A stretch of DNA of 64,000 nucleotides, taken from NCBI GenBank assembly GCA_964526225.1, contig CAZGLL010000004.1:3455-67454 (forward strand). The letters run 5' to 3'. Positions 1 through 51,347 of this stretch are shown here, in pieces. The notes below the pieces were generated by a model. That model made no database searches and was not told the origin of the DNA. It saw only the letters and a list, made by a program, of their open reading frames with translations. The position numbers and the translations under genes were made by a program. How positions within the stretch are numbered: the stretch's first letter is position 1; each line of letters opens with the position of its first letter. The stretch comes from an uncultured Desulfurococcales archaeon. Lineage in GTDB: Archaea; Thermoproteota; Thermoprotei_A; EX4484-217-1.

Positions 1-1308
1 GTAGAAGTAAGCAATATTGTTGATGTCGCTAGGTATGTTTTAGGAGTAAATATTCAATACATAAATTTATCAGCTGAAGAACCTATTCTTAGCGATGCCG
101 TAAAGCAAGCGCTTAAAAAACAAATAAGCTATTTCAAAAGTGAATTTGAGAAAATTAAAGGGACATTATCGAATATTCCAGAAGAACTAGTAGGCATAGT
201 TAATGAAGCCGAAAAACTAATGAATGAAGCTAAAGAACTCGAGGAACAAGGATTAGCATATTCTGCTGCAAGTAAAGCTTTCCAAGCAGTATACACTATT
301 GACTACGTTAAGCTACTACTTAACTATATGAATAATGGAGATGTAGCATTAGAGGAAGCTTACAGAGAAGCTAATACAACACTGGATACCGTAAAAACTG
401 CTCTTCAAAAGGTTAAACCTGAAAAATTAAGTGACATCGGTGTTCTAATAGCTTCACACTATAGGCTACTTTTAGCTCAAAAATTCCTTAAGCAAGCTGG
501 CGAGCTTTACTCTCAAGGCGATGTTGAGGATGCATTATTTAGCATTGTTTATGCTAAATGGAGAGCCATTACTGCTAAGCTATGGTTAAATGCTTTAGGT
601 TTAGGTGAAAAGCAACCAGTTCCTGAAGATGCTATTGAGAAGTACTCTCAAACAATAGTTTATGAAGCTTCAAGTGTTGCTGCCTATGCTACATCACTTT
701 TAGAAGATATTGGTGTTTCATCAGATCCTAATCTAAATTCTGCATTAGAAAATCTAGAGGATTCAAGAGATGCAATAGAGAAAGGGGACATATATGGAGG
801 TTTGGGATTAGCTCTATCAACAATAGCTGAAGCAACCACAGCTATTCACAAATACTTTACAGTTAATGTTGAAAAGCAAAGAGAAGCTATAGAAAAGGTA
901 GCTAGAGGATACATTGCGAAAGCTAGGGAGCTAGGTGTAGAACCGATATTGGCATTAGGATATTATGAATTCGCTAAACATCAAAAGAACATTTTGAATG
1001 AAATTTACTTCTACGAACTCTCGTCAATGCATGCTAAAGCACTAATAGATATTTACGTTATAGGTACAACTAAACATGAAGAAGAGGTAATAGTTACTAA
1101 AACAGTTAAGCCTGAAACCCCACCGACTCCTACTGAAACGAACAATACAGAAACCACAACACCTCAAACAACCACCGAGGCTAGAATACAACCAACTTTA
1201 GAGTTAAGAAGTGCTGTTGAAAGAGCCCTATTAATATTATTGGCGTTCCTAGGAGGACTACTGTTAGGCTATGCTATTAGAGGTAGGAGCTCAGCTACCC
1301 CAGGGTAA
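1..1308 (+). CDS. Partial (5'-truncated by window) large surface/secreted protein with a C-terminal Thr/Pro-rich linker and a C-terminal TM anchor
   Basis: The open frame runs from nt 1 in frame with the ORF-track protein at 220..1308, so the N-terminus lies outside the window. The C-terminus has a TPPTPTETNNTETTTPQTTT linker followed by a hydrophobic LLILLAFLGGLLLGYAI anchor. No recognisable enzymatic motif was found. Confidence 0.45.
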   Translation, partial: VEVSNIVDVARYVLGVNIQYINLSAEEPILSDAVKQALKKQISYFKSEFEKIKGTLSNIPEELVGIVNEAEKLMNEAKELEEQGLAYSAASKAFQAVYTIDYVKLLLNYMNNGDVALEEAYREANTTLDTVKTALQKVKPEKLSDIGVLIASHYRLLLAQKFLKQAGELYSQGDVEDALFSIVYAKWRAITAKLWLNALGLGEKQPVPEDAIEKYSQTIVYEASSVAAYATSLLEDIGVSSDPNLNSALENLEDSRDAIEKGDIYGGLGLALSTIAEATTAIHKYFTVNVEKQREAIEKVARGYIAKARELGVEPILALGYYEFAKHQKNILNEIYFYELSSMHAKALIDIYVIGTTKHEEEVIVTKTVKPETPPTPTETNNTETTTPQTTTEARIQPTLELRSAVERALLILLAFLGGLLLGYAIRGRSSATPG

Positions 1309-36267: not shown

Positions 36268-37647
36268 ATGCGGTTAGGTGAAAATTTTGCGCCAATGGGC
36301 TTAAATGAAATAAAATCTCTCTTAAAACCCGAACTTATACCTGAAAAATGGTATAATATTCTCCCAGATTTACCGGAGCAACCACCGCCACCTTTGGATC
36401 CGCAAACACTAAAACCTATTAATCCGGCTAAACTTGAGCGTCTTTTCGCGAAGGAACTTGTTAAGCAAGAGATTTCCCAAGAAACCTATGTTAAAATACC
36501 TGAAGAAGTTAGGGTAGTATATGCTGAAATAGGTAGACCAACACCTCTAATAAGAGCCAGAAGGCTTGAAGAGGCACTGAATACACCAGCGAAAATATTT
36601 TTCAAGTATGAAGGGGTTACGCCAACAGGATCTCACAAGGTAAATACAGCATTAGCCCAAGTGTATTACAATAAACTTGAGGGGACAGAGAGAGTCATTA
36701 CTGAAACAGGAGCTGGACAATGGGGTAGCGCGTTATCGCTTGCTGGGGCTGTTTTCGAGGTTAAGGTAAGAGTTTATATGGTACGTAGTAGTTACGATCA
36801 AAAACCATACCGTAGAATACTAATGGAAATTTATGGAGCAGAAGTCTTTCCTAGTCCAAGTACGAATACTGAGGTTGGAAGGAGGATTCTTGAGGAAGAT
36901 CCGAAAAATCCCGGTAGCTTAGGGATAGCGATAAGCGAAGCAATAGAGGATGTTCTAAGGGATGAGAAAAGTAGGTATTGCTTAGGTAGCGTACTAAACC
37001 ACGTACTACTTCACCAAACAGTAATAGGTTTAGAAGCTAAATTGCAAATAGAGGAGCTTGGAGAATATCCAGACTACGTTATTGGATGCGTTGGCGGAGG
37101 GAGTAATTTTGCAGGACTTTCTTACCCGTTTATAAGAGATAGGTTAAAAGGTAAGTCTTCAACAGAGTTCATAGCTGTCGAACCAAAAGCATCACCTACA
37201 ATAACGCGTGGAGAATACAGATACGACTACGCCGATACAGGAGAGTTAACACCCTTACTTAAAATGCATACTGTAGGGCATAGATACAGGGTCCCTCCGA
37301 TACATGCCGGAGGACTAAGATATCATGGTGTAGCACCAACACTAAGCATCTTAGTGAATCATGGAATAGTAAAGCCCATAGCATATTATCAAAGAGAAGT
37401 TTTCGAAGCAGCAATTTACTTCGCAAAACATGAGGGAATAGTTCCAGCACCGGAATCAGCACATGCCGTTAAAGCGGCAATAGACTTAGCGAGAGAGTTA
37501 AAGAAGAAAAATGAAAAAGCAACAATTCTATTTAACTTAAGCGGCCATGGACTACTAGATCTTTCAGGATACCAGGAGTTCCTCGAAGGAAAATTGCCAA
37601 ACTACGAACCCGAAAAGATAGACTTATCATACCTACCAAAAATCTAA
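36268..37647 (+). CDS. trpB: Tryptophan synthase beta-subunit-like protein, TrpB2 type (stand-alone)
   Basis: The PLP-lysine motif is [12 protein letters not shown]. The N-terminus is TrpB2-like ([19 protein letters not shown]) and the size is ~455 aa. The ORF-track start at 36100 would add a 56-aa hydrophobic extension overlapping tatD, so the start is placed at ATG 36268 (alternative 36295). Confidence 0.85.
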
Positions 37648-37719
37648 AGTCCTTAATAGAAAACTCCTTAACCCATTTTTAACCTTCACTATTAAGCCTT
37701 AAAGTAGAAGTTGAGGTTT

Positions 37720-37757
37720 TGGTAGCCGGGCGGGGATTCGAACCCCGGTCACGGGGG
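37720..37757 (-). tRNA. tRNA-Gln(CUG) 3' exon (positions 38-76 including the encoded CCA)
   Basis: See the parent feature. The T-loop UUCGAAU is flanked by CGGGG/CCCCG. Confidence 0.75.
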
Positions 37758-37835
37758 TTCTCCCCCACCGGACCGCCTAACCCCATTTAGGAAAAGGTTT
37801 TACTAAGTATTTAAAGCTTTATTTTAATAGTTGCC

Positions 37836-38653
37836 TTGCAATTAAAACATGGTATAGAGATGGTAAAGCAGTTGTCTGTAAAAGATTACGCACTAGGTTA
37901 TTTACTAGGGTTTACACTTGGTGATGGAACTATAACTATCGACTTAAAGAGATATGATTACAGAGTAAGATGGTTTATTAATCCTGTAGGAGAAGATGAC
38001 ATAGCATTGTTTATTAAGTCCTTAATTAAGTTACTAAAAAGGAATGCTAAGGTAAATGACTACATAGAACGGAATTCACATAAGAGAACAATATCTTTTC
38101 GTTCTAAGCACTTGATTATAATAATGCAGGGTCTTAAAACAAAGTTATTAAATGGTATGTTAAGCATAGATTGTTTAAGTACCTCTATGTTGATAGGGTT
38201 CCCCTCTTTATATGTTTTTATATGATTTGTCATCGGTTCATCCTTTCCCCCACGGTCGCTCGGGCTTCACCGGTCATTGCGGGGGCGTTCACCGCCGACC
38301 CCAGGCGACGGCACATCTACACATAACGTTCTCTCAATCAATAATATAAATATAACGCAACTAAAAAACATATACGATCATATAAAAAGTGCTACGGCAT
38401 ACTATGTGGTCTAATTGATTCTGATGGCAATATCGAACTCATGTACTATTATGAACCTTTAATCAGAATCACTACTACTAATAAAAGGCTATTTGTCCTT
38501 GTTAAGAACATAGTTAATAAACTCAAGATTGAGTATTTTTCATCTATGAACAAGAGAAGGTTTCTTATATTCATAAAACTTAGAAAGCTACCTTATATTA
38601 TGCCTTGCGTCAAGGTCTTAAGATTTATTCTAAATAATAGGAACGGCATATAA
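37836..38653 (+). pseudogene. Disrupted double-motif LAGLIDADG homing-endonuclease gene inside the tRNA-Gln intron, antisense to the tRNA
   Basis: Motif 1 is [16 protein letters not shown] in ORF 37836..38225 (frame 0). Motif 2 is LCGLIDSDGNIE in an open frame from 38345 to 38653 (frame +2). The two halves are separated by stop codons and a 2-nt frame shift spanning a GC-rich ~120-nt segment. A TATA-like ctttatttta lies ~20 nt upstream of 37836. Confidence 0.7.
38226..38344. other. GC-rich hairpin-forming insertion separating the two halves of the LAGLIDADG ORF
   Basis: The segment is locally ~65% GC in an AT-rich context. It has imperfect inverted arms (cggtcgctcggg ... cccaggcgacgg) and a TTCACCG direct repeat. 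No reading frame is maintained across it. Confidence 0.45.
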
Positions 38654-38716
38654 AACATTTACTTAATGGTAAAGTTGCAGAAGAAAAAGAGGAGGGGTTA
38701 GGCGGTCCGGCGCGGG

Positions 38717-38754
38717 CCAGAGCCCCGCATCCTTGACCGCTAGACGACCCGGCT
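38717..38754 (-). tRNA. tRNA-Gln(CUG) 5' exon (positions 1-37)
   Basis: See the parent feature. Acceptor AGCCGGG pairs with CCCGGCU of the 3' exon. Confidence 0.75.
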
Positions 38755-38856
38755 TCTTTTTAGTCAGAAAATAACTATGTGTATAGGGGTTTTAAGGGTT
38801 TCTTTAAAATCTAAATAAGTTAAGCTTATATTATATGTGTTACATGTATTACAGAG

Positions 38857-39360
38857 GTGACAGAGGTGTCTGAAAATAAGGGAAAGCCTGAAGAAGAGGA
38901 TAAGGGTAAGAAGAAAACTGTTACGATTAGGAATATTGATGAAGAACTCTACGCTAAAGCATCGGCTCTCGCAAAGAGCATAGGAGAATCTGTAGGAGAA
39001 ATAATCAATGAAGCCCTTAGAGCGTTCCTAGCGATAGCTGAAGGATCAATAGGGTTTGCTCAGAAAGTAAAGGAGGGCGTCGAAGCAACAATGAAAACGA
39101 CCACTGTAAGCGACCTAGAAGAATTAACAATAACGAGTAAGGATTTAGAGGAAATTGAAGGAAGAGTAAGGTTCAGGAACATTAAGAAACTTGTAGTGGA
39201 CAACAGTGTAACATGGGAACTTTTCGATAAGAAAATCGCGTCAATAGTTTTCGTAGACAAAGTAGTGCTTCCTAAACACATACCTAAGCTTAAAGCGCTC
39301 TCAAAAATGAAGCTTGTAAAGAAAATTGAACAATTTAAAGAGGAAGAAGAGGGTAGTTGA
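38857..39360 (+). CDS. Acidic hypothetical protein with an N-terminal ribbon-helix-helix-like segment
   Basis: 167 aa. TVTIRNIDEELYAKASALAKSIGESVGEIINEALRAFL resembles the RHH/CopG beta-strand-helix-helix pattern. The rest is Glu/Lys-rich. Confidence 0.35.
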   Translation: MTEVSENKGKPEEEDKGKKKTVTIRNIDEELYAKASALAKSIGESVGEIINEALRAFLAIAEGSIGFAQKVKEGVEATMKTTTVSDLEELTITSKDLEEIEGRVRFRNIKKLVVDNSVTWELFDKKIASIVFVDKVVLPKHIPKLKALSKMKLVKKIEQFKEEEEGS

Positions 39361-39994
39361 AAACAGATTTAGTGATAAAGTGTAATCCAAAAACTATAAG
39401 TAATAAGCCTAAAGCTGCAATAAAATACCTATATCTTTTCTCTTTTAAAACATTCCTACCTATAAAAGACATATGAGCTGTCACCATAAGCCATACATAA
39501 TCCATCCATACGTGAGCTATGTATATTAGTGGCAAGAAAATATAGGGAAGAATCCTTAAAGTTGCATAAATAAATGTTGAACCTATAAATAGCCACCACA
39601 AGATGAAGAACGGATTGAAAGCTGAAAGAGCAATACCCATGAATAGAGGTCCCTTACTTCCGAATTTGTTAAGAAACGAACTATTTAAACTAGCACCTTT
39701 ACTCTTTAAAGCATCAACTAATTCCAAAATTCCAAAAATAATCATTGTTAATCCCCCTAAAACACCTAGTAGTAAAGCTACTTCACCAATCATTATGACC
39801 GAGAATATTCCGAAAGCAATCATTAAGAAAAGCGGAAATTCAACAATAGTATGGCCGATGGACATTTTTAAACCGGCTTTCCACCCTTCTCTTGATCCGA
39901 AGATGAGGTTTGTAACGAATAATGGTCCTGGAGCTAAAGCTCCGGTAGCTGTTAAAACCTGAATAGTAATTATAAGGTTAATTAAGGGATCCAA
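39335..39994 (-). CDS. Polytopic membrane protein
   Basis: 219 aa with 6-7 hydrophobic helices. Confidence 0.45.
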   Translation of the reverse strand: MDPLINLIITIQVLTATGALAPGPLFVTNLIFGSREGWKAGLKMSIGHTIVEFPLFLMIAFGIFSVIMIGEVALLLGVLGGLTMIIFGILELVDALKSKGASLNSSFLNKFGSKGPLFMGIALSAFNPFFILWWLFIGSTFIYATLRILPYIFLPLIYIAHVWMDYVWLMVTAHMSFIGRNVLKEKRYRYFIAALGLLLIVFGLHFITKSVFNYPLLPL

Positions 39995-39995
39995 G

Positions 39996-40667
39996 TTACT
40001 CTAAACCTTCTATTTCTCTTTCAAGCTTGTCAAGGAAGTTTATCATGTACTCATATCTTTTAATAGCTAATTTTTTTCCCTTACGTGTCCACATAAGGTC
40101 TTTTAATTTGAACAGTTTCTCATAGAAATGGTCTATTGCTTCATCCAAAGTTCTCCTCTTATAAGCGGACTCCATAAAGACCCTCATTATCCCCACAGCA
40201 CCTAAAGCGTCAAGCTTATCTGCATCGCTAAGAATCATTCCCTCAACTGTTTTGGGCTTATGTCCCAGGGTGAAACTATGGGATAAAATAGCGTCCTTTA
40301 CTTTCTCAATGAATTCCCTTGGAAAACCGTATTGCTCAAGAATTCTCTGAGCCATTTCAGCGCTTAAAATGGCATGATGCTTATGTAAATCTTGTTCCTC
40401 TATTCTTCCAACATCATGTAGGAGAACAGCCAACTTTAATGCGGCGGAATCATATTTTCCCTTATATTCCTCAGCTAATTTGAAAGCTAACTTCATAACT
40501 CTTTCAACATGTGGAAATCCATGAACAGGGTCATTTCCTAAGGTTTCTCTAACTAAATCCTCTATATCCTTAATAGCTTTGTTCTTTGACCCATTGTCGC
40601 TTCGAGAGTCATCTTTCAGTTTACTAAGCTTCTCAGATAAAGTCTTTAATGTGGAATGTTTGCTCAT
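39996..40667 (-). CDS. HD-domain phosphohydrolase
   Basis: 223 aa with the HD motif GFPHVERV...LLHDVGR. Confidence 0.85.
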
Positions 40668-40755
40668 TTCGAACTATCACCTATTTTCCCCGTTTTCTAC
40701 AGCATTAAACATGGTCTTCAATATAAATATTTTGACCTAATATCTCTCGTAAGCT

Positions 40756-41010
40756 TTAAGGGTCTCTGTTGGCGTTGGAAAGAATTATTTCTATGAGTGT
40801 ACCTTCATTGTCAGGTAATCCTTCAAACACTTCTTTCCCATTGACTAACATAATGGGTATTTCGGTATCCGAATCTTTCACTTCAAATTCTACTTGTTTA
40901 CCTAAATTTTCCTCAAGAATATCTCTTATCTCCATAAACCAATCCTTTAATGTTTTTACATAGTAGCTATTCTCCATACCGATAATTGTAACTTTAACTT
41001 TATCAGACAT
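40756..41010 (-). CDS. Small hypothetical protein
   Basis: 84 aa with coding-like composition. No motif was recognised. Confidence 0.3.
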   Translation of the reverse strand: MSDKVKVTIIGMENSYYVKTLKDWFMEIRDILEENLGKQVEFEVKDSDTEIPIMLVNGKEVFEGLPDNEGTLIEIILSNANRDP

Positions 41011-41139
41011 TGTTCCGTTCCTCTTAGGATCGAGACTATTCGCTTATTTGGGTACTTGAGTTTTGGAAGCTATGGTAGCATTTAAATACTTTACTGTCTA
41101 AAAGAAGTACTTTAAAAGTAAGAGTTAGGATCCGAGATG

Positions 41140-41275
41140 TGGGGCTCCGTGGTTCAGTAGAGGTCCTGAAAGCCCCCGATGGAAATGAAACTCCGAACCT
41201 GATGAAGGGGAAGCCCGTGCAAGCATTCAAAGCATCGAAAATACACAAAAGATAAAGCACGGGCAACCACATACT
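41140..41275. ncRNA. Candidate structured non-coding RNA / regulatory element in a divergent intergenic region
   Basis: A GC-rich island lies in an AT-rich spacer. Nested stems include GGGGCU...AGCCCC enclosing UUCAG...CUGAA, plus GCCCGUGC ... GCACGGGC (8 bp) and CGAUG...CAUCG. The only ORF here (41036..41272, minus strand) is low-complexity and is rejected. Confidence 0.2.
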
Positions 41276-41354
41276 TATCTACTTCCTTTCTAGATATAGT
41301 TAGAGCAGAAGCATTACCAATTTTTTGATTATAAGCTTTTAGGGATGGTCAGGT

Positions 41355-42542
41355 TTGAGACTGGAAATTCCTAGGTATCTTGAAAGGTTTGGTGCGGTTA
41401 AAATATACGACGTGCAAAGAGTGATAGAGATTGATGGTGGAGCATCTAAGGAACATAGTGAGGTTTTTGTTTTAAGATTCACTAATGCCGAACTTGGAGA
41501 AGTAGAATCTAACATGGCAATAGTTGTTCCTGTTAAAAATGAGAATCCTAAAGTTCTTGAGGGAGTAATAAGCGGAATCCCTCATGACGTACTTGTCATT
41601 GTCGTTTCTAATTCTACAAGAGAACCCATAGATAGGTACCAAATAGAGTTAGATACGCTCTTAAACCATTATAGGTTCTCCAGAAGACCCATGGTTATTG
41701 TCCATCAGAAAGATCCAGCATGGGCCGAAGCGCTAAGGAAAGTAGGTTATTATGACATTTTAGATAGTAGCAGCGAAGCGGTTAGAGACGGTAAGGGAGA
41801 AGGTATGATTCAAGGGCTAATTTTAGCAAAAGCATTAGGTAGAAAGTATGTAGGTTTCGTAGATTCAGATAACTACATTCCAGGAGCAGTATATGAGTAC
41901 GTCAAAATCTACGGGGCAGCTTTTCTATCTTCGAGAACAGACTACGTAATGGTAAGAATAAGGTGGCCTTATAAAACAAAGTTTAGCGGTAGGGGATTCT
42001 ACTTTAGAAGAAGAGGCAGAGTCTCTGAGATAACGAATAGATACATGAATCTCCTAATAGGGAGGCTAACACATTTCGAAACAGACATTGTTAAAACAGC
42101 AAATTCAGGAGATCACGCAATGAGTATTAAGTTAGCTGAGGAACTTGCTTTTGCAGAAGGATTCGCTATAGAACCGTATGAGCTCATGTTCATATTTGAG
42201 GAATTCGGAGGTTTCATTAAGAAAATAGCTAATAAGGAAGTAGCTTCTAAAGGTATTGAAATTTTTCAAATAGAACCTAGAAATCCACATGTACATGAGG
42301 AAAGAGGAACAGAACATATTAATGAAATGCTTCTTAAATCCCTTTCAACAATATATCATAGCAAACTATGTGGTAAGGAACTTAAAAAACAAATACTTAA
42401 TGAACTCAGAATTAGAGGTATTCTGAAGGAAAATGAGGAACCACCAAAAATAAGGACTATAAGGCCTATTAAAAACGTGGACGTTAAAAAGGTCTTAGAA
42501 ATTTTAGGGGGAAAAGCGGAATCATTGATATTGGCTGAGTAG
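41355..42542 (+). CDS. mpgS: Mannosyl-3-phosphoglycerate synthase (GT55 family)
   Basis: 395 aa. It shows strong collinear similarity to archaeal MpgS as recalled from memory (VVPVKNE, GKGEGM, YVGFVDSDNYIPGAVYEYVK, GRVSEITNRYMNLL, GIEIFQIEPRNPHVHEERGTEHINEMLL, TIYHSKL, ENEEPPK). Confidence 0.8.
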   Translation: MRLEIPRYLERFGAVKIYDVQRVIEIDGGASKEHSEVFVLRFTNAELGEVESNMAIVVPVKNENPKVLEGVISGIPHDVLVIVVSNSTREPIDRYQIELDTLLNHYRFSRRPMVIVHQKDPAWAEALRKVGYYDILDSSSEAVRDGKGEGMIQGLILAKALGRKYVGFVDSDNYIPGAVYEYVKIYGAAFLSSRTDYVMVRIRWPYKTKFSGRGFYFRRRGRVSEITNRYMNLLIGRLTHFETDIVKTANSGDHAMSIKLAEELAFAEGFAIEPYELMFIFEEFGGFIKKIANKEVASKGIEIFQIEPRNPHVHEERGTEHINEMLLKSLSTIYHSKLCGKELKKQILNELRIRGILKENEEPPKIRTIRPIKNVDVKKVLEILGGKAESLILAE

Positions 42543-42655
42543 TTTTCGGACTCAATTTAGTTTAATATAAGTTTTTCGCATTAACCACTATATTTCTCTA
42601 TTTTGGAAAGCATTATTTAATTATTTCAAATCCTTAAACTCTAAGGGATTACCTT

Positions 42656-43147
42656 ATGAAGCTAACAGTAGCTTCTGCTCATCTACCAACAGCACCTAAG
42701 GTTCAAAGAGTATTAGTACATGATAGTTCTAAATGTACTGCTTGCTGCACCTGTATGATAGCTTGTGCTATGAGGCATTTTGGTATAGCCGATCTTAAAA
42801 AGTCATTTATAAAGATAGTATTTAACGAGAAACTTCAAGCTTTCGAAGCAGTATATTGTCATCACTGCGATAATCCTTTCTGTATGAATATATGTCCTGC
42901 AGATGCTATTTCGAAAGACGAAGTTACAGGTATTGTTAGAATAAATCCGCTTATTTGTGTAGGTTGTGGTTCATGCAACTATGCTTGTCCTTTAGGTGTT
43001 CCAAGGAGAGATCCTCAAATGCATGTTGCTGTAAAGTGTGATTTATGCGAAGGAGATCCGGAATGTGTTAAACAATGTCCTACTCAAGCTTTAAGATATG
43101 TTCCCAGAGAAGAAGCATACTCATTCTTAACTGAGAAATACAGGTGA
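42656..43147 (+). CDS. CooF/HycB-like polyferredoxin (4x[4Fe-4S])
   Basis: 163 aa with four CxxCxxCxxxCP-type motifs (CTACCTCMIAC, CHHCDNPFCMNICP, CVGCGSCNYACP, CDLCEGDPECVKQCP). Confidence 0.8.
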   Translation: MKLTVASAHLPTAPKVQRVLVHDSSKCTACCTCMIACAMRHFGIADLKKSFIKIVFNEKLQAFEAVYCHHCDNPFCMNICPADAISKDEVTGIVRINPLICVGCGSCNYACPLGVPRRDPQMHVAVKCDLCEGDPECVKQCPTQALRYVPREEAYSFLTEKYR

Positions 43148-43153
43148 AACGCT

Positions 43154-44299
43154 ATGTTTTTCGAAGTAGTTGCAACACTTGGAATAATAACTTTAGCTAT
43201 TCCCGCATTCTTAGCTTTAGTAGAGGACGATATTAAAAGAATAATTGCCTATTCAACGGTTAGCCAAATGGGTTACATTGTTTATAGTATAGGCATAGGA
43301 ACAGTTTTAGGCGTTGCCGGCGCTTTATTCCACGTAATAAACCATGCATTATTAAAGTCAATGCTATTCTTAGCGGCTGGAGCTGTGATCTACGCTACCG
43401 GAACAAGAAATATTAGAGAACTTGGCGGCCTAGCATATAAAATGCCAGTTACTGCTACGGCTATTCTGATAGGAGGTCTTTCAGTAGCTGGACTACCTCC
43501 CTTAAACGGTTTCGCAAGTAAGCTCTTAATTTACGAAGCTGGATTTGAAAGAGCATTTCACGACCCAACATTTATAGGTAGGCTTTACCTACTTTACACG
43601 GTAATCGCGATTTTCATCGGCGCAGTAACGCTTCTCTACTTTATGAGGCTCTTCTATTCTGTATTTCTCGGTATGCCCTCTAAACTCGCTGAAAAAGCGA
43701 AGGACCCGCCTGTTGCTATGAAGACATCACTAATATTGTTAATGGTGATTTCTATAATATTTGGAATATTCCCGCAAATTCCTGTAGGTTTCATAGTGAA
43801 CCCTGCTTTAGCATACATGTTTCCGAAGGCTGGTTTACCCTTAAGTATTTCATATTTTGGCTACAGCACTAACGTAGGCTTCTACACAGCAACATTATTA
43901 ACAATAGTTTTACTAGTAACAGCCAGTATATCGTATGCAATATACGTTTCAGGAAAGAAACTATATGAAAAAGTTACCATAACGCCACCTGTTGTAAGAG
44001 AGTTACATGAGTTCAAATACGAGGTATTTACAGGTGGAGAATATGGAGGCGAACTTTTGCCTCTTGAAGAATTGAAGATTACACCTGAAGAGTTCAACTT
44101 TGCTCTTAAGGAATCATTTTCTTCACTATACAGTTTCTCTAAAGAAGGAGGTATTGAAGGGGTTATTTCGTACATGTTCCATGAGTTTCTAAGTAAAGTA
44201 AGAGAATTAGACATTATAAGATATGTTAAAGTTAGCTCATACGTTCTCGTTTACATATTATTCTTCGTAATAATGCTTTTCCTCGCAACAGCTATGTAG
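43154..44299 (+). CDS. Truncated NuoL/M/N-EchA/MbhH-like antiporter-type membrane subunit (H'-like)
   Basis: 381 aa. It begins at the conserved mid-protein KRIIAYSTVSQMGYIV motif of proton-pumping antiporter-like subunits. The N-terminal ~220 aa of the full-length family are absent. Confidence 0.7.
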   Translation: MFFEVVATLGIITLAIPAFLALVEDDIKRIIAYSTVSQMGYIVYSIGIGTVLGVAGALFHVINHALLKSMLFLAAGAVIYATGTRNIRELGGLAYKMPVTATAILIGGLSVAGLPPLNGFASKLLIYEAGFERAFHDPTFIGRLYLLYTVIAIFIGAVTLLYFMRLFYSVFLGMPSKLAEKAKDPPVAMKTSLILLMVISIIFGIFPQIPVGFIVNPALAYMFPKAGLPLSISYFGYSTNVGFYTATLLTIVLLVTASISYAIYVSGKKLYEKVTITPPVVRELHEFKYEVFTGGEYGGELLPLEELKITPEEFNFALKESFSSLYSFSKEGGIEGVISYMFHEFLSKVRELDIIRYVKVSSYVLVYILFFVIMLFLATAM

Positions 44300-44311
44300 G
44301 GTGTAAAGCTT

Positions 44312-44941
44312 ATGGTGCCAAAGGACGTACCTGAAAAATTAGGAGAAATGGTGGTTGAAGTTTATTCGACAGGACCTAAAAGATACATTCTAACGCTTAG
44401 CAGTTACGATAAAATACGTGAGGCTGCGAAAATACTTTTTGATGAAGGCTTCAGAATATCTACAATAACAACTTTAGACCGTGGCTTCTACTTTGAACTA
44501 CTTTACCACTTCGTTAAAAAGAACGTTATTGCATCAATTAAAATACTTGTTCCGAAAGGTGAAAGTAAAGTACCTTCAATAACACCTATCATTCCGGGAG
44601 CTAACTGGTTAGAGAGAGAAGTTAGAGATCTCTTCGGAATAGAGTTTGTAGATCATCCTGAACCTAGAAGGGTTGTTTTACCTCCTGATTGGAAGGATGA
44701 GCCACCGCTTAGAAAACCTGTTGCTCCAGAGTTGCCAGAAACTTACGCTAACTACTTTATGTCGCTAGCAACTAAGGCAGCGCTTGCATCCTTAAGCGGC
44801 TTAGCTAAGAGAAGAAGGAAACAAATGGGATTACCTGAAGTTGTAACGCCAGTTCATGAATCTAAAGATGTAATTGATGAAGTAAAGAAGATTTCGAAGG
44901 AGCTAAAAATTGATAGAAAAGTTCCCATAGGAGGGAAGTGA
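44312..44941 (+). CDS. NuoC/EchD-like hydrogenase subunit
   Basis: 209 aa with the NuoC signature ANWLEREVRDLFGIEFVDHP. Confidence 0.8.
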   Translation: MVPKDVPEKLGEMVVEVYSTGPKRYILTLSSYDKIREAAKILFDEGFRISTITTLDRGFYFELLYHFVKKNVIASIKILVPKGESKVPSITPIIPGANWLEREVRDLFGIEFVDHPEPRRVVLPPDWKDEPPLRKPVAPELPETYANYFMSLATKAALASLSGLAKRRRKQMGLPEVVTPVHESKDVIDEVKKISKELKIDRKVPIGGK

Positions 44942-45837
44942 CCGATATGGCGCTAAAATACATATTCTATCCGGGATGCTTCATACCCGCAATGCTACCA
45001 CATGTAGAATACAGTATTAGATACGTCTTAAACAAATTAAATGTTGAACTACAGGAAATACCCGATCTTTCATGTTGTCCACCTAAAATTACTAGTGTAG
45101 GAGACTTTAAAGCATGGCTAACTATTTCGGCTAGAAACCTTGCATTAGCGAGTAAACATGGGTTAGACTTACTTACTCCATGTAATGGATGTTTCGAATC
45201 ATATTTTGAAGCCAAACACTTCATAGAACATAGACCGGACTTAGCGAAAGACCCATTAGACATCTTGAAGAAGCTAGGTTTACCAACAAAAATAGAAAGC
45301 AACGTTAAACACTTCGTAGAAGTAGTGTATAAGGATGTTGGACTGAATAGGTTGTCCGAAGAAATAGTTAAACCACTTAAGGGGCTTAGAGTCGCTGTAC
45401 ATTATGGATGCCACCTTTTCGTAACATCACCTGGAGGAGATATTTGGGAAAAACCGAGAATGATGGATGAAATCCTAAGGACTCTCGGAGCTGAGATAGT
45501 TAGAGACGGTTTAGAGAGAATATGCTGCGGCTTCGTTATGTCAACGATCGATGATACGAAAGCTGTTCTCGAAAGATCCGAAATTAGGTTAAGAAGCGTT
45601 AAGTCATTAGATGTAGATTGTCTTGTAACTCCATGTCCACAATGCCTTATAAGATTTGAGTACAGTCAAATAAAGCTTAGGTCGTTGAAGAATGTAAGAT
45701 ACGATTTGCCGGTGGTTCATTTAGCGGAACTTATAGCGATAGCTTTCGGACTTGACCCATTAAAGATGAAATTTGATAGACTACATAGATCCCCTGTTAA
45801 ACCTGTTTTCGAAAAGCTAGTGAAGGAGGGAGGATAG
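44938..45837 (+). CDS. HdrB/GlcF-like protein with two CCG cysteine-rich domains
   Basis: 299 aa with two Cys-x(n)-CC-x(n)-CxxC modules (PGC...SCCPPK...CNGC and YGCHLF...ICCGF...CPQC). It overlaps the neighbouring hydrogenase subunit genes on both sides by 4 nt. Confidence 0.6.
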   Translation: MTDMALKYIFYPGCFIPAMLPHVEYSIRYVLNKLNVELQEIPDLSCCPPKITSVGDFKAWLTISARNLALASKHGLDLLTPCNGCFESYFEAKHFIEHRPDLAKDPLDILKKLGLPTKIESNVKHFVEVVYKDVGLNRLSEEIVKPLKGLRVAVHYGCHLFVTSPGGDIWEKPRMMDEILRTLGAEIVRDGLERICCGFVMSTIDDTKAVLERSEIRLRSVKSLDVDCLVTPCPQCLIRFEYSQIKLRSLKNVRYDLPVVHLAELIAIAFGLDPLKMKFDRLHRSPVKPVFEKLVKEGG

Positions 45838-45839
45838 TT

Positions 45840-47012
45840 TTGGAGAAAGTTGAAGGTAAAATATGTTCCATACCTATAGGGCCATACCATCCAGCTTTGG
45901 AGGAAATAGCTTTCTACAAGGTTTATGTTGAAGGAGAGAGAATAGTTGATGCTCTTATTAAACCTGGTTTTAACCATAGGGGTATTGAGAAATTAGCTAT
46001 GCAGAGAAGTTACCGTAGAAATGTTCAGCTTTTCGAAAGAGTATGTGGAATATGTTCTGACGCTCATACAACAGCTTACTGTGTTGCAGTTGAGAATTGC
46101 TTAAAGATAAATGTACCTAAGAGAGCACAGTATATTAGAGTAATAGAGCATGAAGCAAATAGAATCCATAGCCACCTATTATGGTTTGGTATTGCAATGC
46201 ATATTATAGGTTTCGACACATTATTCATGCACTCATGGGCTATTAGAGAAGCAATAATGGATGTTGTAGAAACTCTCACCGGGAATAGAGTAAACTATTC
46301 AGTAAACACTATTGGAGGCGTTAGAAGAGACATTACACCTGAGCTAGCAAAATATGTTGAAGAGAAGCTTAAAATCGTCGAGAAAGGAACACTTTACTTA
46401 ATGAAAGCTGTTAAAGAAGACAAAACAATAAAGGCTAGAACATCTGAAGTAGGTATTTTAACGAAGGAGGAAGCAAGGAAATATTGCGTAGTAGGTCCTA
46501 CAGCTAGAGCATCAGGAATAGATGAAGATATTAGGAAAGACGACCCATATATTAACTTTGAAGATTTCGAATTCGAAGTTTGCGTAGAGGACGCATGCGA
46601 CGTATACGGGAGAATTATGGTTAGGCTAAGAGAAACATTAGAATCTATTAAGATAGTAAGGCAGGCCCTTAAGAACCTACCTGAAGGCAAATTAATAGCT
46701 GATTTACCGTATCCTTTCCCGAGTGAAGACGTTGGAAGAGTTGAAGCCCCTAGAGGAGAACTAATATATTATGTTAAATCGAATTATACGAACATCCCGG
46801 AAAGAGTTAAAGTGAGAACACCTACTTTCGTTAACCTCCCAGCGGTTAAGCCTATGCTCATCGGAAATAAGCTTGCAGATGCACCACAAATACTTGCAAG
46901 TATTGACCCGTGTTTATCATGTAATGACAGGCTTGTTATCGTAGATTTGAGAAGTGGTCGTGAAAAAACAGTTCTTCTACAAGACTTCATTAGAGGGAGG
47001 GTGAAACTGTAA
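45840..47012 (+). CDS. Group-4 [NiFe]-hydrogenase large subunit (NuoD/EchE-like)
   Basis: 390 aa with the L1 motif RVCGICSDAH and the L2 motif DPCLSCNDR. A ~30-aa C-terminal extension follows L2. Confidence 0.88.
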   Translation: MEKVEGKICSIPIGPYHPALEEIAFYKVYVEGERIVDALIKPGFNHRGIEKLAMQRSYRRNVQLFERVCGICSDAHTTAYCVAVENCLKINVPKRAQYIRVIEHEANRIHSHLLWFGIAMHIIGFDTLFMHSWAIREAIMDVVETLTGNRVNYSVNTIGGVRRDITPELAKYVEEKLKIVEKGTLYLMKAVKEDKTIKARTSEVGILTKEEARKYCVVGPTARASGIDEDIRKDDPYINFEDFEFEVCVEDACDVYGRIMVRLRETLESIKIVRQALKNLPEGKLIADLPYPFPSEDVGRVEAPRGELIYYVKSNYTNIPERVKVRTPTFVNLPAVKPMLIGNKLADAPQILASIDPCLSCNDRLVIVDLRSGREKTVLLQDFIRGRVKL

Positions 47013-47959
47013 TGTATATTGTTCCGTTACTTATTGCCTTAGCTGAAATAATAATATATCCGGGATTAATATTTTCAATACTATTTGGAGGAATAATTGT
47101 TTGGTTATATAGAAAAGTTAGAGCTAGACTTCAAGGAAGGAGGGGTCCTCCATGGTATCAGACATATGCTGACGTATTTAAGCTCCTAATTAAGGAAACA
47201 ATAATTCCATTGAGAGCATGGAAGGTTGGGTTCATTGCTGCACCAATGATTTCATTAGCTGCTCTCTTTGTAGCAGTACTTTTACTTCCATTCTTCGGCA
47301 AAGAATCAGCGCTAGGGTTCCTAGGTGATGCAATAGTTTTACTATACTTGCTGACAATACCTACTTTTGCAATAGCATTTGGAGGTATGGCTTCAGGTAG
47401 CCCATATGGTATTGTTGGTTCGGGGAGGGAGACTTCACTACTTGTATGGTATGAGTTGCCACTATGGCTTTCAGCGGCAACAGTTTTCGCTCTTGCAAAC
47501 TCTATTTCCATAAGCGGAATAATTGAAGAACAAGCTCTTCATGGGCCATTCGCCATAAGACTACCTTTAGCTTTCATAGCTTTCCTAATAGCAGCTCAAG
47601 CAAAGTTAGCTAAAAGACCTTTCGATATACCGCATGCTGAAACAGAAATTGTAGCAGGACCCTACACAGAATATTCTGGTTCATTAAGGGCTCTATTCGA
47701 GCTATGCGAAGTGTTTAAGTGGTTAGCGGTTTCAGCTTTAACTGCAACTCTATTTCTAGGATGGCCTGTGATAGGTAATCCTGTAGCGGATGCACTAATA
47801 TTCATAGTTAAAATAGTATTTTTCGCGCTCATATTCGCATTTATTGACATAATTAATCCTAGATTACGTATTGAACAAGCAGGGTGGCCTCTTTGGAAGA
47901 TTGCTGCAGCACTTGCACTAATAGATACTATAAGAGTCTGTATGGGGTTGGTGATTTGA
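47012..47959 (+). CDS. NuoH/EchB-like membrane subunit
   Basis: 315 aa polytopic. The conserved loop is RPFDIPHAETEIVAGPYTEYSG. Confidence 0.88.
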   Translation: MYIVPLLIALAEIIIYPGLIFSILFGGIIVWLYRKVRARLQGRRGPPWYQTYADVFKLLIKETIIPLRAWKVGFIAAPMISLAALFVAVLLLPFFGKESALGFLGDAIVLLYLLTIPTFAIAFGGMASGSPYGIVGSGRETSLLVWYELPLWLSAATVFALANSISISGIIEEQALHGPFAIRLPLAFIAFLIAAQAKLAKRPFDIPHAETEIVAGPYTEYSGSLRALFELCEVFKWLAVSALTATLFLGWPVIGNPVADALIFIVKIVFFALIFAFIDIINPRLRIEQAGWPLWKIAAALALIDTIRVCMGLVI

Positions 47960-47960
47960 A

Positions 47961-48518
47961 ATGAAATCAAGTATAGTTAAGGAAGCTCTAAAGTATTTCG
48001 TAAACCCCGTTACTGAGGCTTTTCCAGCTGCTAAACCATATTTTCCGAAGAAATATCGTGGACCACCAGTTTATGATCAAGATAAATGTATGGGCTGTAC
48101 TGCATGCGCCCATGTTTGCCCCGCCGACGCTATAACAGTGATTGAAAAGGATGGTAAAAGAACTCTTGAGGTATGGTATGGTAAATGCACTTTCTGTGCG
48201 AGATGTGAAGAATCATGCCCTGCAGATGCGATACACTTAATGGAAGAATTTGGTGTCCCATCTGAAGACAAACTTGCTTTCAAATCAACAGTTACCCACG
48301 ACATGGTTAAGTGTAAGTTATGCGGTAAACCATTTATAACTATTAGACATGCTGAATGGATAAAGAAGAACCTACTTGAGAAAATGGGTGATGTTGTAGG
48401 GTCTGAGGAAATAGACTTCTTCCTAACAGTATGTGAAGACTGTAGACATAAAGTAGAGAACATTCCGGAATTTAGAAAACTCCTCATTAGAGCGGCTATT
48501 AAAGGTGGAAAAGTATGA
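47961..48518 (+). CDS. NuoI/EchF-like 2x[4Fe-4S] ferredoxin subunit
   Basis: 185 aa with CMGCTACAHVCP and CTFCARCEESCP. Confidence 0.88.
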   Translation: MKSSIVKEALKYFVNPVTEAFPAAKPYFPKKYRGPPVYDQDKCMGCTACAHVCPADAITVIEKDGKRTLEVWYGKCTFCARCEESCPADAIHLMEEFGVPSEDKLAFKSTVTHDMVKCKLCGKPFITIRHAEWIKKNLLEKMGDVVGSEEIDFFLTVCEDCRHKVENIPEFRKLLIRAAIKGGKV

Positions 48519-48982
48519 GTTCGAAAAAATGTTTCCTATGTTCCCTAGCTAAATGGGCACGTAGAAAATCCGTATGGCTATATCACGCACCAGCGGGAGG
48601 TCTCTGCAACGGCTGCGATATTGAAATAGCTGCTGCAATAACGCCTAGATATGATGTTGAAAGGTTCGGTATACTTTTAGCTCCAAGCCCTCGACATGCC
48701 GACGTAATACTAGTTGCTGGTCAAATGACAAAGCACTCTAAGGAAAGACTTCTAAGGGTGTATCAGCAAGTTCCTGAACCTAAAGCTGTAGTAGCTATAG
48801 GTTCATGCGCTATTTCAGGTAATGTATTTACAACAGAAAACTATCCCGTAGCCGGAACGGTGGATCAAATAATTCCTGTCGACGTTTACGTTCCCGGATG
48901 TCCTCCTAAACCTGAGGCAATAATTCTCGGAGTAGTTAAAGCTATAGAGAAACTAGAGAAAAGAACAGCAGAGCCCACCTAG
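48515..48982 (+). CDS. NuoB/EchC-like [NiFe]-hydrogenase small subunit
   Basis: 155 aa with the proximal-cluster Cys pattern CNGCDIE...GSCAISG...PGCPPKPE. Confidence 0.88.
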   Translation: MSSKKCFLCSLAKWARRKSVWLYHAPAGGLCNGCDIEIAAAITPRYDVERFGILLAPSPRHADVILVAGQMTKHSKERLLRVYQQVPEPKAVVAIGSCAISGNVFTTENYPVAGTVDQIIPVDVYVPGCPPKPEAIILGVVKAIEKLEKRTAEPT

Positions 48983-50157
48983 GGTTTTAAACCTAGAATT
49001 CTAGCTAATTCCTTAACTTTTCCTCCGCCTCCAAACTTGGCCCAAACAGCACATGTTCCCTCAGACGAGACCATACATGGACCGTAGGGTGTATTTGGAG
49101 TACAAGTTTTCATGAAGAACGGACAATCTGTAGGAACAGCCTTACCCAACGTTACATCTCCGCACATACATCCCGGAGGTAAATCCATGGATTTAGATAC
49201 TTTAACATCATATTCTGAATGGACATCAATGCTTTTGTAGGGATTTCTTAGTTCTAAACCGCTTTTAGGAATAACACCTATACCTCTCCAGTGAGCATCA
49301 ACGATGTTAAATGCTTTTTCAACATACTTTTGAGCAACAATGTTACCTTCCCAACTATCAACCCTCGAGTACTCATTGAATATTCTAGGTTTTCCCTCAA
49401 CAATTTGCTTAAGTATTTCAAGAACAGCTAAGACTACATCTAATGGTTCAAAGCCTGCTACAACAGCAGGTAATCCGTACTCTTCAGGTAAGAATTTCCA
49501 TGCCTTCGCGCCAGTAATTGCGGTAACATGTCCTGGAGCAATTATTCCGTTTAGTGGAATATCTGGCTGATTTAGAACGTAATGTACTGCTGGTACAGTT
49601 AATCTATAGGCGATAAGTAGTTTTAGATTGCTAGGTATAGTTCCTAATACTACATGGCTAGCAACTGTTGGTTGGGTTGTTTCGAAACCTACTGCTAAGA
49701 AAACATGTGTTCTACTAGGGTTCTTTTTAGCAATTTTTAACGCGTCAAGGAAACCGTAAACTATTCTAATGTCTCCTCCTAAACTTCTAGCTTCAGCTAG
49801 GCTCATACTTGTTCCAGGAACCTTATACATGTCTCCATAAGTTAGCAATGTGACTTCATAGTTTAACGCTAACTCTATAGATTCGTCAATAACCTTCGTT
49901 GGAGCTATACATACCGGGCATCCGGGTCCCGCAATGAGTTCTAATTTTTCCGGCATAAGGCTTCTTAAGCCGTAATACGTAATTGTATGTTCATGTGTTC
50001 CGCAAACATGCATTATCTTTATCTTATCTTCACCAGTCTTCCTTAGTGCTAAAGGAGCTAGCTTATGTATTTTCCTAACTGCCTCTCTAAGAAGCTCTGA
50101 TTCTCTAAACATCCTAACTATTTCCTTAAGACCCTCATGTAGATCACGAGTATTCAT
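48979..50157 (-). CDS. hypD: Hydrogenase maturation factor HypD
   Basis: 392 aa with MHVCGTHEH, GPGCPVC and the C-terminal CPFFMKTCTPNTPYGPCMVSSEGTC cluster. Confidence 0.95.
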   Translation of the reverse strand: MNTRDLHEGLKEIVRMFRESELLREAVRKIHKLAPLALRKTGEDKIKIMHVCGTHEHTITYYGLRSLMPEKLELIAGPGCPVCIAPTKVIDESIELALNYEVTLLTYGDMYKVPGTSMSLAEARSLGGDIRIVYGFLDALKIAKKNPSRTHVFLAVGFETTQPTVASHVVLGTIPSNLKLLIAYRLTVPAVHYVLNQPDIPLNGIIAPGHVTAITGAKAWKFLPEEYGLPAVVAGFEPLDVVLAVLEILKQIVEGKPRIFNEYSRVDSWEGNIVAQKYVEKAFNIVDAHWRGIGVIPKSGLELRNPYKSIDVHSEYDVKVSKSMDLPPGCMCGDVTLGKAVPTDCPFFMKTCTPNTPYGPCMVSSEGTCAVWAKFGGGGKVKELARILGLKP

Positions 50158-50315
50158 TCAAATTATTCCCTCATACCATAATTTCCTTATAGCTTAGAGA
50201 TTTGAGTTTCTGTAAAATATATTTCCAACTAACAATATACTATATGTGCTGACTTAGGATTTACATAAAACGTGCTCCCAGTACGTGGTGTTTAAAGGGG
50301 AAGGAGGCTTACTAA

Positions 50316-51347
50316 ATGGTTAGGGTTTCAAAAGTAACCCTAGCTCATGGTGCTGGCGGTAGGGAAACATCCGAAATAATAGAGAAGTTTTTCATAAAGA
50401 AATTCAATATTAAAAAAGTTTCTTCAGGATTCGGTTTAGATGAATTAGAAGATTCATCAACAATCCCCCTTCCCGACGGGAACTATTTAGCGGTAACTGT
50501 TGATAGCTATACTGTCAGCCCAATATTCTTCCCTGGAGGGAATATAGGCAAATTAGCTGCAACGGGGACCCTAAACGACCTAGCTGTTATGGGCGCTGAA
50601 CCCATAGCAACAATGGACAGCATAGTTGTTGAAGAAGGATTTGAAATGGAGCTTCTAGAGGAAATAGTGACTTCAATACGTGATGTTCTTGAAAAATACA
50701 ATGTTGCGTTAATAGGCGGAGACTTTAAGGTAATGCCTAAAGGACAGCTTGACAAAATAGTAATAACAATGACAGGTATAGGAATAATACCTAAGAACAG
50801 GTTAATTTCAGACTACAATATCAAACCAGGCGACAAAATAGTAATAACAGGAACTATAGGGGAACATGGAGCAGCAATTTTAGCCGCACAAACAGGAATA
50901 GGTGTTGAAGATTCAAGCCTTTTTAGCGATTGCACTCCAATAATTGAGGCTATGGAAATAGCATTTAAAATAGGAGGTATACGTGCAGCAAAAGATCCTA
51001 CGAGAGGAGGATTAGCTATGGCCCTTAATGAATGGGCTAAAAAATCTAAGCTAACAATCGTTGTTAAAGAGGAAAACATACCGTTAAGAGAAAGCGTTAA
51101 AGCTTACTGCGAAATGCTAGGTGTTGATCCACTTACACTTGCATCTGAAGGCAGGGCGTTAATTGCTGTTTCACCGGAGAAAGCAGAGGAATTAGTGGAT
51201 ACGCTAAGAAGTAAGGGATATAAGGATGCCGCAGTAATAGGTGAAGCTAAGAAGGGTAGAGAAGGATATGTGCTCTTAGAAACGATAACTGGAGGGTTAA
51301 GAATAATCGAAACTCCCATTGGAGAAATAGTTCCAAGAATATGTTAG
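50316..51347 (+). CDS. hypE: Hydrogenase maturation factor HypE
   Basis: 343 aa with an AIR-synthase-like fold, N-terminal TLAHGAGG and a C-terminal PRIC cysteine. Confidence 0.95.
   Translation: MVRVSKVTLAHGAGGRETSEIIEKFFIKKFNIKKVSSGFGLDELEDSSTIPLPDGNYLAVTVDSYTVSPIFFPGGNIGKLAATGTLNDLAVMGAEPIATMDSIVVEEGFEMELLEEIVTSIRDVLEKYNVALIGGDFKVMPKGQLDKIVITMTGIGIIPKNRLISDYNIKPGDKIVITGTIGEHGAAILAAQTGIGVEDSSLFSDCTPIIEAMEIAFKIGGIRAAKDPTRGGLAMALNEWAKKSKLTIVVKEENIPLRESVKAYCEMLGVDPLTLASEGRALIAVSPEKAEELVDTLRSKGYKDAAVIGEAKKGREGYVLLETITGGLRIIETPIGEIVPRIC

Follow-up and report, generated by a model that had tools for sequence, protein, structure and literature searches.

Introns in archaeal tRNA genes are normally short and carry no open reading frame (ORF). 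Genes for LAGLIDADG homing endonucleases are found in bulge-helix-bulge (BHB) introns of crenarchaeal rRNA genes, where they always lie in the sense orientation (PMC4496867). Split tRNAs with GC-rich leaders are described in Desulfurococcales for Asp and Lys in a study that also proposes a mobile-element origin for them (PMC3218864). The movement of tRNA introns and the origin of split tRNAs have been debated for about 20 years, and the evidence for mobile elements has been only indirect (PMC3218864, PMC4033280). Here we describe a locus in a 64,000-nt stretch of DNA from an uncultured Desulfurococcales archaeon (contig CAZGLL010000004.1, positions 3,455 to 67,454; this whole stretch is called the window, and its positions are counted from its first letter). 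In all probability, the locus is a tRNA-Gln(CUG) gene split at the canonical position 37/38 by a cassette of about 760 nt with an antisense gene for an I-DmoI-like, monomeric, double-LAGLIDADG homing endonuclease, the window copy of which is broken by a 200-nt transposable element.

The locus shares features with two known systems. As in the rRNA-intron endonuclease systems, the host element is bounded by a BHB in a stable-RNA gene of a hyperthermophilic crenarchaeon, and the protein is of the I-DmoI, I-Tsp061I, I-PorI, and I-ApeI type (about 195 amino acids, a monomeric two-domain fold, two LAGLIDADG helices, and conserved acidic residues). It differs from the systems in 16S and 23S rRNA introns in that the host is tRNA-Gln, at position 37/38, and in that the ORF runs opposite to the host RNA in every locus, so that the ORF is not translatable from the excised intron and a promoter of its own is needed. 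The split tRNAs of Nanoarchaeum, Caldivirga, and Desulfurococcales likewise have halves joined at 37/38 through a long, GC-rich, complementary leader and trailer that form a BHB; the nearest split case is that of the Aeropyrum pernix tRNA-Asp halves, which are adjacent and on the same strand (PMC3218864). Hyperthermophilic Desulfurococcales-type hosts and a promoter-like element directly upstream of the 3′ half are further points of likeness. Unlike in those split tRNAs, a mobile element with an identifiable gene lies physically between the halves here, and the halves, whose separate transcription is a prediction, are always collinear. Gln(CUG) and Gln(UUG) are not among the Desulfurococcales split tRNAs listed in PMC3218864, and in a full-text search of the literature other than subscription-only papers, neither BHB introns of archaeal tRNAs nor the spaces between split-tRNA halves were reported to contain an endonuclease gene. 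From their sequences, we regard the loci described below as conserved cassettes that carry an endonuclease, are specific to tRNA-Gln genes, and form a class not remarked on before.

The tRNA gene lies on the minus strand. Sequence reading and ARAGORN after in-silico splicing placed the 5′ exon (nucleotides 1–37, AGCCGGGTCGTCTAGCGGTCAAGGATGCGGGGCTCTGG) at 38717–38754 and the 3′ exon (nucleotides 38–73 and the encoded CCA) at 37720–37757. The intervening sequence at position 37/38, as delimited by the canonical splicing register, spans 37758–38716 on the same strand and is 959 nt long, or 759 nt without the transposable element, compared to 673–1204 nt in homologous loci. No tRNA was found by ARAGORN in the raw window, and the Rfam match at the locus was confined to the T-arm/acceptor region (37720–37769). 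After removal of 37758–38716 in silico, ARAGORN reported a 76-nt tRNA-Gln(CTG), and in-silico splicing yielded tRNA-Gln(ctg) in five loci. The joined exons form a normal tRNA-Gln with an encoded CCA. A preliminary description, made from the window sequence alone, had placed an endonuclease gene on the plus strand within a sequence interrupting a tRNA gene on the minus strand; the positions of the motifs and of the flanking minus-strand exons bear this out. The 5′ exon of the window was identical in the homologous loci L001, L002, and L027 and showed one difference in L028 (L and P numbers denote loci and proteins). With the exons joined, the junction of an intron-less tRNA-Gln gene reads GGATGCGGGGCTCTGG/CCCCCGTGACCGGGG. 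The exons of the CUG and UUG genes differ essentially at the anticodon base and at one or two D-loop bases, and the joined anticodon-loop region common to both is GGATGCGGGGCT followed by C or T, then TGG and, across the junction, CCCCCGTGACCGGGG.

The exon–intron borders form a helix-bulge-helix-bulge-helix (hBHBh′) motif, the central helix of which was defined as tRNA nucleotides 32–35 paired with intron positions n−2 to n−5. In the window, the motif consists of a 5-bp anticodon stem, the central helix C32-G, U33-A, C34-G, and U35oG, and the bulges GG/C and AA/C. The canonical register was present in all nine loci tested by script, each with a 5-bp anticodon stem, two 3-nt bulges (GG/N and AN/C), a 4-bp central helix, and a helix continuing beyond. 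The central helix covaried with the anticodon, being C34-G in CUG genes and U34-A or U34oG in UUG genes. Minimum free energy (MFE) folds of mini-precursors showed slipped registers because C and G runs permit sliding, and the canonical register was therefore verified explicitly.

An inverted-repeat search located the two strands of a closing helix. The GC-rich 3′-side strand lies at 37762–37784 (minus strand; core 37768–37784, GGGGUUAGGCGGUCCGG on the tRNA strand) and the 5′-side strand at 38694–38716 (minus strand), followed on the tRNA strand by UCCUCUUUUUCUUCU with a T5 run at 38684–38688. The arms are 23 nt long and 91% complementary, the best ungapped helix is 19 bp, and the BHB of the window is thus extended by a GC-rich helix of 17–19 bp. 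A GC-rich closing helix of 16–24 bp was found in all 10 loci; its sequence varied strongly between loci while the pairing was kept, and a U-G pair in the L028 helix fits, judging from the helix sequences, the tRNA strand only. The archaeal splicing endonuclease and RtcB ligase would excise the intervening RNA. The closing-helix arms of the window are left intact by the transposable element, and because the splicing motif is untouched, the tRNA from this locus should still be made and be functional.

The endonuclease gene was delimited by translation and homolog alignment. Its N-terminal part lies at 37860–38197 on the plus strand, with ATG at 37860 (alternatively TTG at 37836) and LAGLIDADG motif 1 at 37893–37934 (frame 1), and its C-terminal part at 38398–38653 on the same strand, with motif 2 at 38402–38437 (frame 3, LCGLIDSDGNIE) and the stop codon TAA at 38651–38653. 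Frame 1 closes at the stop codon 38223–38225, and frame 3 resumes with YGILCGLIDSDGNIELMYYYEPLIR. The gene of the window is therefore not an intact ORF, with a 200-nt insertion, a frame shift, and stop codons between two halves in different frames; on this, and on the presence of two motifs, translation agreed with the preliminary description, and the gene is inactive in this genome. Removal of the 200-nt insertion restored an ORF of 197 amino acids that aligned end to end with intact homologs. The spacing of about 172 codons between the motifs given earlier was inflated by the insertion, as the motifs are 103 residues apart in the repaired protein and about 103 in intact homologs. The repaired protein is 63–66% identical to the closer homologs and 50% identical to that of L028, and it retains every column that is invariant across six aligned proteins of the CUG group. 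The D of GDG in motif 1 and the D of SDG in motif 2 are invariant in the homolog alignment.

The assignment to double-motif, I-DmoI-like endonucleases was upheld by the profile score, the homologs, and a fold comparison. The joined translation scored above the cutoff of Pfam LAGLIDADG_3 (22.5 bits) both after exact repair (26.5 bits) and as a crude join (25.5 bits); the N-terminal half alone had no Pfam match. Two distant homologs, P0014 and P0017, were also above the cutoff of PF05204 (Hom_end). Among 5.8 billion proteins searched, six were close homologs (45–59% identity, E 1e-55 to 1e-73); five of these are intact ORFs of 185–205 amino acids, and the sixth, P0005, is truncated to 176 amino acids. 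A profile of the homologs compared with PDB sequences gave a marginal match to an I-DmoI chimera (E 0.12), a level of sequence similarity that sets the family apart from I-DmoI, and a comparison of folds was therefore needed. The AlphaFold model of P0002, which is 65% identical to the repaired window protein, had a pLDDT of 83.3 and a pTM of 0.84 and showed two alpha-beta-beta-alpha-beta-beta-alpha repeats in a pseudo-dimeric arrangement. In a Foldseek search of this model against the PDB, I-DmoI ranked first (E 2e-8, TM 0.64–0.71), followed by I-SceI, I-AniI, and I-Tsp061I. These results confirmed the LAGLIDADG identity of the window protein far beyond chance.

The antisense layout was a rule of the family. 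The gene lies antisense between tRNA-Gln halves in all 10 distinct homologous loci examined, whose proteins span 29–79% amino acid identity. In the CUG group (L001, L002/L003/L026, L027, L028, and L029) it runs opposite to tRNA-Gln(CUG), and these loci do not contain the 200-nt element. A profile search extended the family to proteins at 29–44% identity, and the four loci examined among them (P0014/L036, P0017/L038, P0018/L040, and P0019/L041) all carry the gene antisense in tRNA-Gln(UUG). The antisense placement in tRNA-Gln at 37/38 is thus an invariant architecture of this endonuclease family. Ratios of nonsynonymous to synonymous substitution rates (dN/dS), which are rough because dS is saturated in most pairs, were 0.08–0.16 for CUG-group pairs excluding the most divergent member, L028, and 0.16–0.22 for the computable pairs with L028. 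In the best-conditioned pair, L001/L027, dN was 0.108 and dS was 1.15. With a dN/dS of about 0.1, the endonuclease is under purifying selection in the CUG group; the protein is thus kept up by selection rather than drifting.

Some individual loci show further features. In L036, the endonuclease ORF extends across the closing helix of the intron and stops only within the sequence antisense to the tRNA 5′ exon (2090–2135); the tRNA 3′ exon is followed closely downstream by a GC-rich gene resembling 5S rRNA. The tRNA-Gln(UUG) 5′ exon of L041 (860–875, GGGGCCTTGG) has C33 instead of the near-universal U33, so that the gene may be a pseudogene, the base may be a sequencing variant, or the anticodon loop may be unusual. 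The tRNA-Gln spacer of L029 contains an ORF of 43 amino acids on the tRNA strand (203–334, minus strand, MPKRVNVTFNDDEFERLRKIKDELGL) that brings the spacer to 1204 nt, looks ribbon-helix-helix-like by eye, and has no Pfam match.

The insertion that breaks the window gene was mapped to 38198–38397 (plus strand) by homolog alignment and by copies elsewhere. The segment SMLI-G-ILCGLIDSDGN is contiguous in every intact protein, and the extra DNA of the window lies exactly there, with the glycine codon position present at 38196 and again, 200 nt further on, at 38396. As both ends have GG, the junction may be set at 38196, 38197, or 38198. Comparison of copies defined a conserved block, GGGTTCCCCTC...GCTACGGC, at 38196–38398 on the plus strand. 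An inverted-repeat search identified a left subterminal imperfect inverted repeat containing TTTATATG at 38204–38228, the partner of which lies at 38365–38389 (25 nt, 80% complementary), and a GC scan and the alignment of copies identified a GC-rich conserved core at 38224–38341. The core has 60–68% GC in a background of about 30% GC; it and the two tRNA exons are the only three regions of the window that reach 60% GC in 60-nt windows.

The element was found in further copies. A 24-nt core probe matched two metagenome-assembled genomes (MAGs; a Desulfurococcales archaeon and a Thermoprotei archaeon) in a genome scan, and a 21-nt core probe matched 20 hydrothermal metagenome contigs. In total, vent metagenomes and MAGs yielded 22 other loci with the element, representing about 19 distinct sites as some loci duplicate or share a site. 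The copies are blocks of 194–216 nt with sharp ends and wholly unrelated flanks. The block starts with GGGTTC(G/C)CCTCTTTATATG and ends with TATAAAAC(C/A)TGC(T/A)ACGGC, so that every copy has GG/GTTC at one border and C(T/A)A(C/A)GG/C at the other; GGGTTCGCCTCTTTATATG and TATAAAACCTGCTACGGC are the end sequences by which matching ends can be found. The reconstructed targets include ATA-GGC-ATA, TAA-GGC-TAT, and GTT-GGC-TGC. Excision of the block minus 3 nt restored ORFs in four different genes, among them a TnpB/Cas12f-like gene (L011, 989–1204), in which PF07282 spans the repaired junction, a gene in which the CxxCxxCxxxCP 4Fe-4S motif of a ferredoxin-type domain was restored (L013, 9625–9840), and the CitMHS transporter gene of L023. 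Because the same sharp-ended block occurs in unrelated contexts and its excision restores ORFs, the insert is a non-autonomous transposable element. Searches with blastn and nhmmer found no further copy in the window, and viral contigs and plasmids gave no matches.

In L011, one mobile element is thus nested within another. The ORF interrupted in L013, at its N-terminal 4Fe-4S motif, is about 900 amino acids long; its ferredoxin-type motifs were confirmed, and an apparent LAGLIDADG intein-like insert (LGYYLSEG...) in it is a candidate only.

The GC-rich core of the element, about 100 nt, was much more conserved among the copies than the AT-rich arms. Perhaps it binds the transposase or is what remains of a guide-RNA scaffold of TnpB, but other roles are conceivable. 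A structured non-coding RNA was rejected, as there was no Rfam match, no covariation, and mostly unremarkable folding stability: MFE folding of the 156-nt core gave z-scores of −0.25 and −0.51, that of the full insert with flanks gave −2.39 (plus strand) and −0.51 (minus strand), and the covariation term from RNAalifold for 19 copies was about 0, with no compensatory pairs. Readings of the core by eye as a C/D-box or H/ACA RNA did not hold up.

Elements of the IS607 family have GG at their termini and in the target, produce no target duplication, and have no terminal repeats but subterminal imperfect repeats (PMC6188088). IS607 is the only insertion sequence family reported in Staphylothermus marinus, where IS607-related MITEs (miniature inverted-repeat transposable elements) also occur (PMC2678158). 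The 200-nt insert resembles this family and its MITEs in having GG at both junctions and in the target without further duplication, and an imperfect subterminal inverted repeat in place of terminal inverted repeats. Like elements of this family, it is multi-copy and disrupts genes, here in a Desulfurococcales setting; the S. marinus MITEs are about 260 nt long. Unlike IS607, IS1535, and ISC1926, it has no transposase or TnpB gene, and its strongly conserved core of about 100 nt distinguishes it from IS607 elements and MITEs. The insert may thus provisionally be called IS607-like; as an IS607-family derivative, it would be moved in trans by a serine transposase. By its insertion it would have killed the endonuclease while sparing tRNA function, and the window copy of the endonuclease gene is apparently dead, killed recently by this IS607-like miniature element.

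The broken gene had previously been taken to reflect an ancient invasion whose endonuclease decayed and left an enlarged intron behind, or a free-standing gene that landed in a pre-existing intron. Either history fits the non-functional window gene with its two frames and the stop codons between them, and a C-terminal frameshift is also found in L002, where P0005 is truncated relative to P0001. We nevertheless consider both improbable: the sole lesion of the window gene is one clean insertion of a complete mobile element, after repair of which the ORF is full length with all invariant residues kept; most relatives have intact copies with a dN/dS near 0.1; and 10 loci, with protein identity falling as low as 29%, all have the gene antisense at one and the same tRNA position. 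This recurrent layout is better explained by a single ancestral design of the cassette than by secondary insertions that happened repeatedly. Still less probable is that the endonuclease mRNA contains the 200-nt insert as an intron, of the BHB or IStron-like self-splicing kind, and that the enzyme is still made. Removal of the insert restores the frame exactly, bacterial elements of the IS607 family are reported to double as group I introns (bioRxiv 10.1101/2023.11.20.567912), and the element is in the sense orientation in three of the four interrupted genes. However, it is antisense in the CitMHS gene of L023, and most copies lie where no long ORF spans the junction, apparently between genes. 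Moreover, a hand check of three registers found no 4-bp central helix and hence no BHB register at either junction on either strand, a result by which a nested intron on the tRNA strand was likewise rejected; no Rfam family, group I introns included, matched at E values up to 1; and the folding results described above, with no compensatory pair in 19 copies and mostly unremarkable z-scores, offer such an intron no help. An assembly or sequencing artefact, a general possibility in metagenome-derived sequence and nothing more, is hardly credible here, given that what breaks the gene is an element of 200 nt whose ends are defined, that L034 (JGI metagenome 3300014911) is 99.95% identical to window positions 37400–44791 over 7392 nt without a gap and has the same insertion, and that the 121-amino-acid N-terminal fragment P0009 is found on three contigs from NCBI, JGI, and ENA sources. 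The recent insertion of a mobile element thus accounts for the broken frame.

How the two tRNA halves are expressed is a more balanced question. A TATA-like element was read at 37808–37816 (TATTTAAAG on the plus strand, CTTTAAATA on the minus strand). On the tRNA strand it precedes the start of the helix by 23 nt, and on the other strand the endonuclease ATG by 43 nt; such an element had already been noted about 20 nt upstream of the endonuclease gene, and TATTTAAAG is indeed found 19 nt before the TTG at 37836. A TATA-like box ended 21–25 nt upstream of the 3′-side helix strand in 9 of the 10 loci. In the window, CTTTAAATA is preceded on the tRNA strand by AAATAAAG, and we take the two together to resemble strong crenarchaeal promoters with a transcription factor B recognition element and a TATA box. 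T5 or pyrimidine tracts follow the 5′-side helix in several loci (T5 in the window and L038). The fixed TATA-like box, the tolerance of T-runs, and the extra 43-amino-acid ORF in the L029 spacer all lean towards a split tRNA, and on this evidence we slightly favour the reading that a separate promoter drives the 3′ half and that the gene is a collinear split tRNA spliced in trans.

The competing reading, an ordinary though very long cis-spliced BHB intron in a single precursor of about 1 kb from the tRNA promoter, with the antisense gene expressed despite read-through, has a probability only a little short of even. It is consistent with the halves being on the same strand, collinear, and adjacent in all 10 loci, with the canonical BHB at 37/38, and with the cis-splicing of archaeal rRNA introns of similar size that contain endonuclease ORFs (PMC4496867). 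The distribution of T-runs in the spacer speaks on both sides: on the tRNA strand, T5 runs are absent from L001 and L027, whereas the window, L002, L028, and L029 have T5–T6 runs there, and oligo-T on this strand was not depleted, although the counts are small. The window spacer even tolerates 200 extra nt with two more T-runs. A cis intron also leaves the TATA-like box at its fixed distance from the 3′-side helix to be accounted for, and a helix of 16–24 bp exceeds the need of BHB recognition and is of the length usual in the halves of split tRNAs (Chan et al. 2011, PMC3218864). Finally, read-through from the tRNA promoter should interfere with the antisense endonuclease gene, which would be hard to express under such conditions; this gene probably uses its own promoter.

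A mechanism for the spread of the cassette can be proposed. In tRNA-Gln genes without the intron, the LAGLIDADG enzyme would cleave the DNA around the anticodon loop, and the cassette would be copied in during repair (homing). An endonuclease reading the anticodon-arm DNA could plausibly serve both CUG and UUG genes, and we propose that the family is limited to the two near-identical Gln isoacceptors because the enzyme would target the anticodon-loop DNA. Tentatively, then, the cassette may home to position 37/38 of tRNA-Gln, carrying an antisense endonuclease and a divergent promoter into the 3′ half, and turn a continuous gene into a collinear, trans-spliced split tRNA; it would be the first identified homing-endonuclease-driven mobile element of archaeal tRNA genes. 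This full scenario is possible, though we put it below an even chance. Several points weigh against the account of the locus given here as a whole. Among the retrieved loci, and with no scan aimed at it, no intron-less tRNA-Gln allele was seen, and hence no presence/absence polymorphism, the classic sign of homing. The cleavage activity and the target site of the endonuclease are predictions, and splicing, promoter use, and the choice between cis and trans are all read from DNA sequence. The endonuclease gene, in place of or along with the 3′ half, could be what the TATA-like box serves, and halves that are always collinear and adjacent fit a plain cis intron as well. With nhmmer, none of the fetched loci turned out to have an autonomous IS607 partner whose ends match, and the assignment to IS607, drawn from the junction signature alone, is therefore provisional; the roughness of the dN/dS ratios adds to these points.

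If the proposal is true, the cassette would be a living intermediate between BHB introns, split tRNAs, and mobile DNA, and would provide a DNA-level mechanism by which BHB introns reach tRNA genes. A homing-endonuclease gene located exactly at the canonical intron and split site, in an antisense design conserved across two isoacceptors and several lineages, would offer a concrete route, endonuclease-driven homing, to the gain of tRNA introns or the splitting of tRNA genes. The proteins are also candidate thermostable meganucleases with a defined target of 20–30 bp in a tRNA gene. As ARAGORN is blind to such genes, a MAG that seems to lack tRNA-Gln may only be affected by an artefact of annotation. 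The window itself holds a nested event, a transposon within a homing element within a tRNA gene, and its copy suggests that, after the cassette has been installed, the host can do without the endonuclease.

Two neighbouring regions of the window were also noted. An ORF of 167 amino acids at 38857–39360 adjoins the tRNA 5′ half; the synteny is kept in L002, L026, and L034, and no Pfam family is on record there. Farther away, a membrane-bound hydrogenase/antiporter-like cluster (Fer4, Proton_antipo_M, Complex1_30kDa, CCG, NiFeSe_Hases, NADHdh, and Oxidored_q6) followed by HypD occupies 42656–51299, which fits a Staphylothermus-like, sulfur-reducing Desulfurococcales host.

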